Shown piece by piece: positions 30,798 to 33,990 of a stretch of 35,532 nucleotides of DNA (the first letter of the stretch is position 1; each line of letters starts with the position of its first letter). The notes beneath the pieces are model-generated. The model worked only from the letters and a program-made list of their open reading frames with translations, was not told where the DNA came from and ran no database searches. The position numbers and the translations under genes are program-made. Source of the DNA: Promethearchaeota archaeon (lineage in GTDB: Archaea > Asgardarchaeota > Lokiarchaeia > Sigyniarchaeales > SOKP01); contig JAEOTZ010000022.1 of NCBI GenBank assembly GCA_016839585.1, positions 1 through 35,532 on the forward strand. The letters run 5' to 3'.

Positions 30798-32225
30798 TTA
30801 TTTTAATGCATTATTTACTATTTTATCTAATTCTTTAATAAGGGATTCATCAATAGGTTTTATAGGTACTTTCTTTTCTAATTTAGCAGCTGCTTCTCTT
30901 GCTCTTTTTCTTGCAGATTTAGATCCTAATGCTTTCCACGTATCACGAGTTGTTCTATCAATAATAGGACTTGGTAAGAAGAGTTCTTTTCTAAAATGTT
31001 TTAAAGTTGTTGGATGAGATAATAATTCTTGTGTTTCTTCATAATCTTTTATAATTTCGGCTGCAAAAGGAGAACCATAATCCTCTATACCTTGGATAAA
31101 ACGTTGTACCATTCCTACAATTTCATTATCAATTATTAATTTTTCTATACTTTGCGTAGATTCAAAATCTAACATCCCAGGACCAGAAACCATATTATTT
31201 CCAGCAAGTGCTGCTAAAAGGGCTCCCATTCCTGCTTCAAAACCTGCTTGGCTATCAGGAACTTTTGAATCACTTAAACCCATATATGCATGAGTAGGCA
31301 TATTCAAGAATTTTCCCATTTCAATATCTCCAATGTTTATCATCATCGTCTCAATTGCACCCATTGGAGTTACGCCTTGTTTCATATCAAATACAGCCGG
31401 AGAACCTCCCCATACTAAGGGTGCACCAGACTTTATTAATTGAGCAATTACAACACCAGCAAGACATTCTGTACAATGTTGTGTGATGGATCCTATTAAT
31501 GTTATGGGTGCGTTCGCACCTGCTAATGGCATCGAGACAAATTCAGATGGTATCATACTTTTAGCCGCATCAATTAAAGATTGAGTTGTAAGATCAGACC
31601 ACTTCAAAGGAGGACTTGGGCATGCATCAAAGATAGCTAGTGGTTTTTTTGCCAAATCATCTTCAGATAGTCTGCAGGCTAATAGTAGTTCCCGCATGAT
31701 TGAAAAGCTTTCTTTACGAAATGTTCCGGTTACTACCGGTTTATAACAATTAGATAAAGCTATATATAATCGATGCCAATCCTGAGCTACATTAGGAACA
31801 TCTTTATAAATTAAAGCCGTACTTTGAGCTTCAATAAATTTTAAATGCTCAACCACTTTTGAAAAGCGAACAAAATCTCTCGACAAGGCTTCTCTAATTT
31901 TTCCAGTATTCTCATCAAGAATAAATATCGCAGCAGAACCTGGATCGAAATGAACTTCATCATCCTTTAATTGAATATGCTCATTCCCTTCTCTATCGTA
32001 TAAAGTTATTTCTCTAGGTACAAAGGCTAAACATTTATCTACTAAATCATGTGGAATAAAATATCTTGAATCTTTATTATTAATTTCATGCTGGTTAAAT
32101 AACTCCTTTGCCTCTTGATTTTCAATAAATACTCCTTGAGTCTCTAATATCGATTTAGCTTCAGTAAAAATTGATTTCTTATGTTCAGTATCTAATAAAT
32201 TAATTTTTGGTCTAATAATTGGCAT
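30798..32225 (-). CDS. MttB-superfamily (trimethylamine/quaternary amine):corrinoid methyltransferase, pyrrolysine-free
   Basis: P.EITLYDR, PSPPLKW, MPLAGANAPITL.G, GAP.VWGG, DMK.G..MGAIE, DSKVPD.QAG.E, G.NMVSGPGMLD, EKLIIDNEI; no in-frame TAG. Confidence 0.92.
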   Translation of the reverse strand: MPIIRPKINLLDTEHKKSIFTEAKSILETQGVFIENQEAKELFNQHEINNKDSRYFIPHDLVDKCLAFVPREITLYDREGNEHIQLKDDEVHFDPGSAAIFILDENTGKIREALSRDFVRFSKVVEHLKFIEAQSTALIYKDVPNVAQDWHRLYIALSNCYKPVVTGTFRKESFSIMRELLLACRLSEDDLAKKPLAIFDACPSPPLKWSDLTTQSLIDAAKSMIPSEFVSMPLAGANAPITLIGSITQHCTECLAGVVIAQLIKSGAPLVWGGSPAVFDMKQGVTPMGAIETMMINIGDIEMGKFLNMPTHAYMGLSDSKVPDSQAGFEAGMGALLAALAGNNMVSGPGMLDFESTQSIEKLIIDNEIVGMVQRFIQGIEDYGSPFAAEIIKDYEETQELLSHPTTLKHFRKELFLPSPIIDRTTRDTWKALGSKSARKRAREAAAKLEKKVPIKPIDESLIKELDKIVNNALK

Positions 32226-32255
32226 TATAAAATTTTCTCCTCCTAAGTTTTAATT

Positions 32256-33134
32256 TCAAATCGAATCAATTATTTTTCGAAGTTCTTTAATTGTTTGAGG
32301 AGACGTCCCACAACATCCCCCTACTATTTTAGCACCATTCTGTATCATTTCATAAATATCTTTAGTGAATTCTACAATTGGTTGTTCATAGTATGTTCTT
32401 GCCCCTTCTATTCTTGGTTGTCCAGCATTAGGCTTTACTGAAAACGGCTTATTAGTAAGTTTAACAGCAATTTTAAATAACTCAACCATTTCTTTAGAAC
32501 CAATAGTGCAATTCGCTCCAATCACATCTACTTTTTCATTTTCTAATAATTCAATACATTTTTCCAATGAATCACCCATTATTGTAAAAAAACCTCTTTT
32601 TGTCTTTTGATATGTCATTGAAGCTATTATTGGTTTTTGAGATACACCTCTAATTGCTTTAATCGCCGTTATCATTTCTTCTATATCGGAAATTGTTTCA
32701 ATATGCCAAAGATCAACTCCCTTCTCTAATAATTTTGCTTGAGTAGAAAAACTTGAATGCCACTGTTCAAGAGTAGCACTTCCTACAGGTGGTCTAAATT
32801 CACCAGTAGGTCCAATATCTGCCACAACTAAATGATCTTTAGGGCATACTTTTCTAATATTTTCTAATGCTTTTGTAATAATATCTTCAATTTGATCTTC
32901 TAAATTATATCGCTTTAAATTCATTGGTGTTGAGCCAAAAGAATTCGTTTGGCACATATCAGAGCCTGCCTTATAATATGATTTATGAATATCAATAATC
33001 ATCTCTGGATTTTCGATGTTCATTAAATCTGGGATTTTTCCAGGCGGTAGTCCTCTTTTAATTAATTCAGTGCCCATAGCTCCGTTAAATAGAATAATCT
33101 TAGAATTATCTTCCAACCAATCATTAAATAGCAA
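32256..33134 (-). CDS. Homocysteine S-methyltransferase domain protein (stand-alone MetH Hcy-binding module)
   Basis: F(N)GAMGTEL, H..YY.AG.D...TNSFG, DIGPTG, IET, GANC, PNAG.P, GGCCGT Zn ligands. Confidence 0.92.
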   Translation of the reverse strand: MLFNDWLEDNSKIILFNGAMGTELIKRGLPPGKIPDLMNIENPEMIIDIHKSYYKAGSDMCQTNSFGSTPMNLKRYNLEDQIEDIITKALENIRKVCPKDHLVVADIGPTGEFRPPVGSATLEQWHSSFSTQAKLLEKGVDLWHIETISDIEEMITAIKAIRGVSQKPIIASMTYQKTKRGFFTIMGDSLEKCIELLENEKVDVIGANCTIGSKEMVELFKIAVKLTNKPFSVKPNAGQPRIEGARTYYEQPIVEFTKDIYEMIQNGAKIVGGCCGTSPQTIKELRKIIDSI

Positions 33135-33165
33135 TTTTATCTAACCTCTCTAAAAGCTTTGATTT

Positions 33166-33813
33166 TTATTTATTTAAAAGAGATTTAACCAATTGGATAG
33201 CTTCAATAGCATTGTCAGCAAAACCATCAGCATTACATTCTTCTACCCATGTACTTGTCACAGGAGCACCACCAAAAATTACCTTGAACTTGTCTGCTAA
33301 ATTTTTTTCTTTTAAAAGATCAATAATTTTTTTCTGACCAATCATTGTTGTTGTTAAGAGAGCTGAAACACCTATAATATCTGCATTCTTTTCAATCGCA
33401 ATATCAATAATTTTTTCAGCTGGTACATCTGCCCCTAAATCAAAAACCTCAAAACCATAAGCTCTTAACATTGTAGCAACAATAGTTTTCCCAATTGAGT
33501 GGATATCACCTTCAATCGTTGCGATTACCACAGTTCCAAGACTTATTCTTTCTGAACCTTTCTGGAGATGGGGAATAATGATGTCCATGCAATTTTGCAT
33601 AATCTGCGCTCCTTTCATTAATTCTGGTAAAAAAAATTCTCCTTCTTCCCATAACTCTCCTACTCGTCGAATCCCAGCTGCATATCCATTCTCAATAACT
33701 TCAAGTAAATCTATCTCTTCTTTAACTGCCTTTTTGGCTAGATTTATAGCCTTTTCCTCATCTAAATTAACAATAGCATTGCATATTTCTGTATAGATTT
33801 CCTCTTGGGACAT
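33166..33813 (-). CDS. Cobalamin-binding corrinoid protein (MttC/MtbC family)
   Basis: B12 cap (VGELW..GEFFLPEL), EGDIHSIGK (DxHxxG), DLGADV, SALLTTTM, GGAP. Confidence 0.95.
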   Translation of the reverse strand: MSQEEIYTEICNAIVNLDEEKAINLAKKAVKEEIDLLEVIENGYAAGIRRVGELWEEGEFFLPELMKGAQIMQNCMDIIIPHLQKGSERISLGTVVIATIEGDIHSIGKTIVATMLRAYGFEVFDLGADVPAEKIIDIAIEKNADIIGVSALLTTTMIGQKKIIDLLKEKNLADKFKVIFGGAPVTSTWVEECNADGFADNAIEAIQLVKSLLNK

Positions 33814-33990
33814 TATAATATCTCCTAAAGAGTATTTTATTCATTTATTTTTAAATTTTATTTATAATAATTAAAAGCTTAGTAAATTACATATAAAAAA
33901 TAAGAAAAATATTACTGATAAATCGAAAAAAATATTTGAGAAGGTTCTTTTTTAAATTTAATTCTAAACAATCTTAGTTTAAGTGATTGG

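Follow-up and report, generated by a model that had tools for sequence, protein, structure and literature searches.

A role in methionine synthesis has previously been proposed for bacterial proteins of the MttB family. Williams et al. (2022, Environ Microbiol, PMC9324843) described in Electryoneota and other bacteria a gene cluster composed of an MttB/MtgB homologue devoid of pyrrolysine (Pyl), a homocysteine (Hcy) S-methyltransferase, a corrinoid protein, and an activation protein, and proposed a novel corrinoid-dependent synthesis of methionine from an unknown donor bound by the MttB homologue. Here, a 35,532-nucleotide stretch of DNA from a Promethearchaeota archaeon (assembly GCA_016839585.1, contig JAEOTZ010000022.1; hereafter, the window) was analyzed, in which three consecutive genes between positions 30,798 and 33,813 encode a corrinoid protein, an Hcy methyltransferase, and an MttB-family protein. 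This operon is probably a three-component cobamide-dependent methionine synthase, in which the MttB-family protein would load the corrinoid protein from a non-pterin methyl donor. The idea is already published for bacteria (PMC9324843), and the present operon is a clean archaeal three-gene example of it. As in the cluster of Williams et al., the MttB homologue, the Hcy methyltransferase, and the corrinoid protein are adjacent, and the bacterial loci compared in this study carry an MttB of the same clade, 47–54% identical to the archaeal protein and with identical pocket residues. However, the present cluster is archaeal (Loki-type Asgard) and comprises three genes, with no activation domain found in either the cluster or the genome. 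Moreover, the Electryoneota metagenome-assembled genomes (MAGs) also carry a full MetH, whereas here the cluster appears to be the only recognizable methionine synthase.

Other described systems share parts of this arrangement. Mausz et al. (2025) showed genetically in Ruegeria that a single corrinoid protein participates in both betaine demethylation and methionine synthesis, in dependence on the pterin-binding MtgD (PMC12478193). The MtgBCDE/split MetH system of Ruegeria pomeroyi and Phaeobacter inhibens (PMC12478193; PMC5764234) resembles the present one in having separate MttB-family methyltransferase 1 (MT1), corrinoid, and Hcy-binding proteins, as well as a RamA-type activase encoded elsewhere. 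However, MtgD (PF00809) is essential for methionine synthesis in those bacteria, whereas here the only such protein is dihydropteroate synthase (DHPS); their MtgB is a glycine betaine enzyme, whereas here the betaine-binding residues are replaced; and their genes are dispersed and their hosts aerobic bacteria. MetH (Thermotoga maritima 1q7m; Escherichia coli) would share with the operon the zinc Hcy barrel with its Cys-Cys-Cys ligands, the His-on cobamide domain with the DxHxxG motif, and the chemistry of methyl transfer from methyl-Co(III) to homocysteine, but differs in that the functions are split here into separate proteins, an MttB barrel stands in for the folate barrel, the corrinoid protein is nearer to MttC, and the activation domain is missing. 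The Pyl-dependent MttB and MttC of Methanosarcina barkeri (7xcl/7xcn; PMC9842639) are the closest solved relatives of the MT1 and of the corrinoid protein, although pyrrolysine is replaced here by Leu317 and the predicted acceptor is homocysteine and not coenzyme M. Finally, the core-MetE and MesA-D enzymes (PMC7857596; PMC7005905) likewise need no folate and receive their methyl group from a corrinoid protein, and in one Asgard genus (g32) a core-MetE gene adjoins orthologous MttB and corrinoid genes; nevertheless, their Hcy-methylating fold is of the MetE type, in contrast to the MetH type found here, and a profile search of this genome found no MetE-type domain (PF01717). In Asgard archaea, MttB homologues have been read as a sign of quaternary-amine methylotrophy, with homocysteine unmentioned (PMC11291895), and no publication that ties these Asgard homologues to the synthesis of methionine turned up in a literature search.

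The genes (from the open reading frame call) and the signals of the locus (read from the sequence) are the following:

33814..33990, minus strand: AT-rich intergenic region of 177 nt, common to the divergent hisS gene (histidyl-tRNA synthetase)
33825-33822, minus strand: GGAG, Shine-Dalgarno (SD)-like, before the start of the corrinoid protein gene
33813..33166, minus strand: corrinoid protein gene, 215 aa
33135..33165, minus strand: 31-nt spacer between the corrinoid protein and Hcy methyltransferase genes
33150-33144, minus strand: GAGAGGT, SD-like, 9 nt 5′ of the TTG of the Hcy methyltransferase gene
33134..32256, minus strand: Hcy methyltransferase gene, 292 aa, TTG start
32226..32255, minus strand: 30-nt spacer between the Hcy methyltransferase and MttB-family genes
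32243-32237, minus strand: GGAGGAG, SD-like, 5′ of the ATG of the MttB-family gene
32225..30798, minus strand: MttB-family gene, 475 aa

The genes follow one another head to tail on the minus strand, from the corrinoid protein through the Hcy methyltransferase to MttB. An earlier note on this DNA had described three co-oriented genes 30–31 nt apart, each with a ribosome-binding site, and the coordinates, the gaps, and the three SD-like motifs agree with that description. Its remark that the operon includes no pterin-binding or MtbA gene also stands: no pterin-binding or URO-D/MtbA-type gene is part of the operon. Since the 31-nt spacer is too short for a promoter and leader of its own, the layout is consistent with co-transcription, and the spacing suggests that the three genes form one operon. 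Its putative promoter probably lies in the 177-nt region shared with hisS, in which a TATA-like run is found ~40–60 nt 5′ of the ATG of the corrinoid protein gene. An unrelated 2-oxoacid:ferredoxin oxidoreductase operon starts ~600 nt past the MttB gene.

The products of the first two genes could be assigned with the aid of profiles and solved structures, in keeping with the earlier note, which had recognized a DxHxxG corrinoid protein and a stand-alone Hcy-binding domain with GANC/GGCC zinc ligands. The corrinoid protein showed the B12-binding cap and Rossmann domains (PF02607 and PF02310), scored above the cut-off of TIGR02370 (223.1 against 215.3 bits), and carried the DxHxxG motif as DIHSIG at residues 103–108, with His105 encoded at 33499-33501. 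Its best solved relative was MttC (7xcn_M, 172 bits), against 100 bits for the MetH Cob domain, and it is predicted to be a cobamide-binding protein of the MttC/MtbC/MtgC type. The second protein consists of a stand-alone PF02574 domain (205 bits), and its orthologues in the Asgard search align from residue 1–2. It was closest among solved structures to the Hcy module of T. maritima MetH (1q7m, 182 bits), against 63 bits for the MmuM type and 40 bits for BHMT. The zinc-binding cysteines correspond to C209 in GANC and to C274 and C275 in GGCCG, and these motifs align with GINC and GGCCGT of the T. maritima enzyme. These features identify it as a predicted MetH-type Hcy-binding zinc methyltransferase, for which the closest relatives suggest homocysteine as the thiol substrate.

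The third protein matched PF06253 with 239 bits (cut-off 25) over residues 6–470 of its 475, and reached 363.8 bits on TIGR02369, the equivalog model of Pyl-dependent MttB, below the cut-off of 525 bits; its closest solved relative was M. barkeri MttB (7xcl, 202 bits). The reading frame has no in-frame stop, and the protein is therefore Pyl-free, as the earlier note had stated. That note had further taken Met351 (GPG-M-LD, codon 31173-31175) for the pyrrolysine position, which had to be revised after the protein was aligned to 7xcl (with phmmer): Pyl334 of M. barkeri MttB aligns with Leu317 (TTA, 31275-31277, in the motif YMG-L-SDSK), and Met351 aligns with the conserved Met368. Both Met249 and Met368 of the M. 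barkeri protein are kept, as Met232 and Met351. Tyr364 and Gly110, which activate pyrrolysine in M. barkeri MttB (PMC9842639), are replaced by Ser347 and Ser97. The glycine betaine site of MtgB is formed by Y97 and F356, engaged in cation-pi interactions, and by R312 and H348, which bind the carboxylate (PMC13080624), and all four residues are replaced here in an alignment to 9yce (Y97 by S97, R312 by H312, H348 by S347, and F356 by E355). By the defining residues of each enzyme, the protein would thus count neither as a Pyl-dependent MttB nor as a glycine betaine MtgB.

The pocket is nonetheless strongly conserved within the clade to which this MttB belongs. Six positions (S97, D149, R152, W209, Y314, and E355) do not vary among 85 clade members, and three more (H312, S347, and F354) hardly vary; the same residues occur in archaeal and bacterial members, and those of the paralogues differ. 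Such near-invariance across archaea and bacteria suggests one shared substrate. Three aromatic and two acidic residues are kept in the pocket, which might suit a small cationic methyl compound.

It was asked by the earlier note whether the genome encodes MetE or MetH elsewhere and an activator of the RamA/RACE type. The genome to which the window belongs, as contig C4, measures 3.45 Mb at 99% completeness, and PF06253 and PF02574 have one match each in it, corresponding to the MttB and Hcy methyltransferase genes of the operon. Neither MetE nor a further Hcy domain nor a pterin module of the MetH type was found, and the MetH activation domain (PF02965) had no match in the whole genome at an E-value of 0.1. 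The only strong Pterin_bind (PF00809) protein is the DHPS, with 200 bits on TIGR01496 (cut-off 162.6); its match, on contig C47, was considered as a possible MetH/MeTr-type methyltransferase and ruled out on this assignment. The operon is therefore the only recognizable candidate methionine synthase of the genome. Regarding the activator, two AcsV/RamA-like proteins (RACo_C_ter) are encoded, at C5:81584-83473 and C41:4129-6135. The genome also harbors an S-adenosylhomocysteine (SAH) hydrolase gene, two MetF-like genes, and seven genes of the URO-D family. One of the latter adjoins another corrinoid protein gene (G000:C88:68538-70213), with a MetF-like gene ~6 kb away (C88:75863-76621), and this URO-D/corrinoid pair is read here as a putative second corrinoid methyl-transfer system.

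In the proposed mechanism, the MttB-family protein, as MT1, would take a methyl group from a small non-pterin donor, most likely a cationic N-methyl compound, and pass it on to the corrinoid protein of the MttC type, in its Co(I) state. As methyltransferase 2 (MT2), the MetH-type zinc enzyme would then move the methyl group from methyl-Co(III) to homocysteine, yielding methionine. In this way, MttB would take the position of the folate-binding module of MetH. In a lineage without the MetH reactivation domain, one or the other of the two AcsV/RamA-type activases, whose genes lie elsewhere in the genome, would probably re-reduce the oxidized Co(II). Homocysteine would derive at least from the S-adenosylmethionine (SAM) cycle, because the SAH hydrolase is present. 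The gene order, the domains, the motifs, the co-conservation, and the lack of another recognizable synthase in this genome are observed, whereas co-transcription, the direction of methyl flow, homocysteine as acceptor, and the type of donor are inferred.

The co-conservation of the three genes was assessed in a sample of 201 Asgard genomes, which were searched with each of the three proteins (families and genera of the sample bear f and g labels), taking as MttB orthologues proteins of at least 48% identity. MttB relatives that are 78–92% identical occur in genomes labelled Promethearchaeota and Hod-, Hermod-, Thor-, and Heimdallarchaeota. In ~30 genomes of two families, f1 and f22, the Hcy methyltransferase gene lies directly upstream of the MttB orthologue, on the same strand and at 17–46 nt; in f5, f27, and one f14 genome both genes share a contig, 0.7–4.4 kb apart. 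The corrinoid protein gene precedes the Hcy methyltransferase gene wherever the contig is long enough. These results bear out the co-conservation on which the earlier note had made its proposal depend. A chance neighborhood of three functionally unrelated genes is hardly credible, being contradicted by this synteny, which is kept in five Asgard families and many bacterial phyla while the flanking genes change. In f5, f14, and f27, the gene between the Hcy methyltransferase and MttB encodes a 216–248-aa homologue of the MetH activation domain (PF02965), so that three of the four MetH modules travel with MttB, which in our reading would occupy the place of the fourth, folate-binding module.

Three further observations were made in this survey. 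In a related genus, the corrinoid protein gene of the operon is directly preceded by a second, distant MttB paralogue (26% identity; L025:8594-10033, G144:C1). A contig titled 'Candidatus Nanopelagicaceae bacterium' (L046, DATKTW010000084.1) carries a Loki-type operon for the corrinoid protein, Hcy methyltransferase, and MttB, 74% identical to the present one, which probably reflects mis-binning or mislabelling of a contig of Asgard origin. A methionyl-tRNA synthetase gene beside an MttB homologue in one f7 genome was attributed to chance, as it is not kept in seven other f7 genomes.

The distribution of the cluster within f1 bears on the direction of the reaction. The f1 genera without the cluster (g2, g6, g7, and g8) all have a weak MetE-like gene, and so does g5, from which the Hcy methyltransferase gene is absent, with one genome (G132) keeping a 64%-identical MttB orthologue. 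Conversely, g3, g4, and the present genome with its nearest relative carry the cluster but lack a MetE-like gene, and most other g1 genomes have both. This distribution, with the cluster found where MetE is missing and MetE-like genes where the cluster is missing, fits a biosynthetic role and speaks against a reverse flow, in which the zinc enzyme would demethylate methionine or another S-methyl compound onto the corrinoid protein and MttB would methylate an amine acceptor. Corrinoid methyl transfers are reversible in principle, and MtgD has been proposed to work both ways; however, thioethers donate methyl groups poorly to Co(I), and every characterized MttB-family enzyme loads the corrinoid, which renders such a reversal highly improbable.

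The partners of MttB in other Asgard lineages are also informative. In g32 (f19), a corrinoid protein gene is followed by an MttB orthologue (~50% identity) that convergently abuts a gene for a 301-aa core-MetE. This core-MetE reached 120 bits with PF01717; with PRK00957, a methionine synthase model whose cut-off is 258, it fell short at 244 bits. The g32 genomes with this MttB/core-MetE arrangement yielded no Hcy domain, and it looks as if the module that methylates homocysteine had been exchanged for a non-orthologous one. In G162 and L055, an MttB orthologue (65–66% identity) abuts a MetE-like gene of 343 aa (PRK00957, 89 bits). The place of the corrinoid protein and Hcy methyltransferase genes is taken in G162 by a Type ISP restriction-modification gene, and this genome has no Hcy domain. 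In f15, an operon of MTHFR (methylenetetrahydrofolate reductase), core-MetE, and MtrH genes looks like a methyl-pterin-fed, corrinoid-dependent core methionine synthase. The loci are the following:

G038:C1:2184828-2187844 (L015:5828-8844): corrinoid protein, MttB, and core-MetE genes of g32; also at G028:C60, G047:C187, G064:C83, G070:C44, and G088:C517
L020:3279-5731 (G162:C27) and L055:172-2627: pairs of MttB and MetE-like genes
G029:C11:91240-93875, G018:C7:8593-11216, G039:C65:628-3110, and G048:C135:11266-13736: MTHFR-coreMetE-MtrH operons of f15

Asgard archaea hence possess two loading modules (MttB and MtrH) and two Hcy modules (MetH-type and MetE-type), which fits a role of MttB as a loader for methionine synthesis. 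This exchange of partners has to be set against a catabolic methylotrophy, in which a methylated amine would be demethylated for energy or carbon, the zinc enzyme being a generic MT2 that acts on another thiol, or homocysteine and methionine serving as a methyl shuttle. The Asgard literature does read Pyl-free MttB as quaternary-amine methylotrophy that feeds the Wood-Ljungdahl pathway (PMC11291895), and MtrH and a corrinoid protein are found beside other Asgard MttB homologues, such as that of G029 in f15. However, the zinc enzyme is closest to the MetH Hcy module and not to MtaA/MtbA of the URO-D family, the SAM-dependent MetH reactivation domain accompanies the cluster in other lineages, the core-MetE swap points to methionine synthesis, and the MttB gene is present in a single copy per genome and very highly conserved among relatives, so that a catabolic function is considered very unlikely.

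A further conserved arrangement was noticed in g20 (f12), in which genes for a CysK/CysM-like PLP (pyridoxal phosphate) enzyme, a corrinoid protein, and an MttB homologue (~42% identity) lie on the same strand (L022:6230-9442, G011:C22; L128-L132). With 337 bits, the CysK/CysM-like enzyme narrowly missed the cysKM cut-off. The trio is followed by a gene for an Arf-like small GTPase, and the genomes carrying the trio have neither an Hcy domain nor MetE.

The same MttB clade was also followed into bacteria. The best 80 loci of a pattern scan, taken from one genome per species, comprised 33 archaeal and 47 bacterial loci, the latter from Acidobacteriota/Thermoanaerobaculia, Aminicenantes, Zixibacteria, KSB1, Krumholzibacteriota, Chloroflexota, Spirochaetales, and others. 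Recurrent neighbors of MttB in these 80 loci were the corrinoid protein (55), the Hcy methyltransferase (41), the activation domain (26), and RamA (8), and no transporter, pterin methyltransferase, or other family was recurrent across lineages. An ABC ATPase, an EamA transporter, and other genes were considered as operon partners and rejected, their presence reflecting lineage synteny only. A FastTree phylogeny (98 sequences) united the clade members that have MetH-type partners, Asgard and bacterial alike, in one group of 76 rows with an SH-like support of 97; a Chloroflexota group that has the corrinoid gene only, with or without RamA, branched outside it, as did deeper Asgard homologues. 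This tree was obtained by a quick method, was rooted on co-resident paralogues only, and covers a set from which the named MtpB, MtcB, MtyB, and MthB sequences were left out. Two MttB proteins of Spirochaetales MAGs (L066 and L067; 52–54% identity), with no MetH-type neighbors, fell inside the Asgard 'Heimdall-type' group, a placement that could be due to horizontal transfer or to a binning error.

Altogether, the co-conservation of the genes, the MetH-type Hcy module, the MttC-type corrinoid protein, and the lack of any other synthase make a split corrinoid methionine synthase, with MttB in the position of the folate module, the best reading of the operon, as the earlier note had proposed. 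Several observations weigh against it. First, the clade to which this MttB belongs is known from sequences alone, and the genomes that share the adjacency include close kin that are not independent, so that the adjacency counts overstate the independent observations. Second, many Asgard genomes (f7 and f12) lack any recognizable methionine synthase, and a sole candidate is, for that reason, no proof of methionine synthesis. Third, the loss of the four glycine betaine residues of MtgB is accompanied by a near absence of the expected transporters: BCCT transporters occur in 0 of the 201 Asgard genomes, and the OpuAC betaine-binding type gave six weak matches among them, all outside f1 and f5. 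Given these residues, glycine betaine held in the MtgB manner is an unlikely donor, and the transporter results do not specifically endorse glycine betaine, carnitine, or choline. The quaternary amine named as donor by the earlier note is a candidate only, and the wording of a non-pterin methyl donor is preferred. The missing BCCT and scarce OpuAC proteins are also at odds with the usual label of Asgard MttB as a betaine-type quaternary-amine methyltransferase.

Fourth, MtrH-family and MetF-like genes are present in this genome and in 40 of 40 sampled genomes of family f1, by which a pterin-derived methyl group, from methyl-tetrahydromethanopterin (H4MPT) or methyl-tetrahydrofolate (THF), could load the corrinoid protein in trans. 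The operon would then be a split MetH whose housekeeping methyl supply comes from an MtrH/MtgA-like protein, with MttB as an extra, conditional input, which may also feed methyl groups of methylated amines to the Wood-Ljungdahl pathway via the same corrinoid protein, as in the MtgBCDE system of Ruegeria. This alternative is supported by the genetic precedent of Ruegeria, in which one corrinoid protein takes part in betaine demethylation as well as in methionine synthesis (PMC12478193), by the f15 operon, which shows that MtrH can partner a methionine synthase, and by the two MtrH-family genes of this genome (C89:67474-68385 and C17:2742-3629), one of which encodes a protein that the archaeal MtgA model scores at 206 bits, short of the cut-off. 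However, these genes lie away from the operon, on contigs where no B12-binding gene was found, and the constant neighbor of the cluster is MttB and not MtrH. Moreover, the cluster occurs in 16 of 21 f5 genomes, a family in which MtrH, MTHFR, and MetE were each found in 0 of 21; the same three were found in 0 of 3 f27 genomes, and MtrH in 0 of 10 f22 genomes. In five good genomes of f5, f22, and f27, DHPS was the only strong Pterin_bind protein. Since cluster-bearing families do without MtrH (f5, f27, and f22) and without MTHFR (f5 and f27), and their Pterin_bind protein is only DHPS, a methyl-pterin donor is unlikely for the clade, and loading of the corrinoid protein from methyl-H4MPT or methyl-THF in trans is regarded as unlikely for this operon. 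The claim of the earlier note that the pathway is folate-independent was thus supported indirectly, by the sister families that bear the cluster and lack MTHFR and MtrH, although the MtrH-family and MetF-like genes of this genome itself might provide a pterin-derived input in trans.

Loading by MttB from a non-pterin donor therefore remains the preferred reading, and it admits a bolder extension, held here only tentatively: the clade may use a methyl donor outside the known substrates of the MttB family and, together with the Hcy module, act in large parts of the Asgard archaea as the only methionine synthase and an essential one. Their supply of methionine and SAM methyl groups would then be independent of folate and H4MPT, and would rely on an environmental or cellular methyl compound.

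If the preferred reading is true, many Asgard archaea would make or recycle methionine via a B12 enzyme that bypasses folate and methanopterin, and the lineages concerned would include the Loki-, Hod-, and Heimdall-types, on which models of the eukaryotes' archaeal ancestor are based. All methyl groups of SAM would in that case depend on the availability of cobamide and on the methyl donor of MttB, through a small system of three genes and an activase. It would also provide the first physiological role for a large branch of the MttB superfamily, which metagenomic studies routinely label as 'trimethylamine methyltransferase' or as quaternary-amine methylotrophy.

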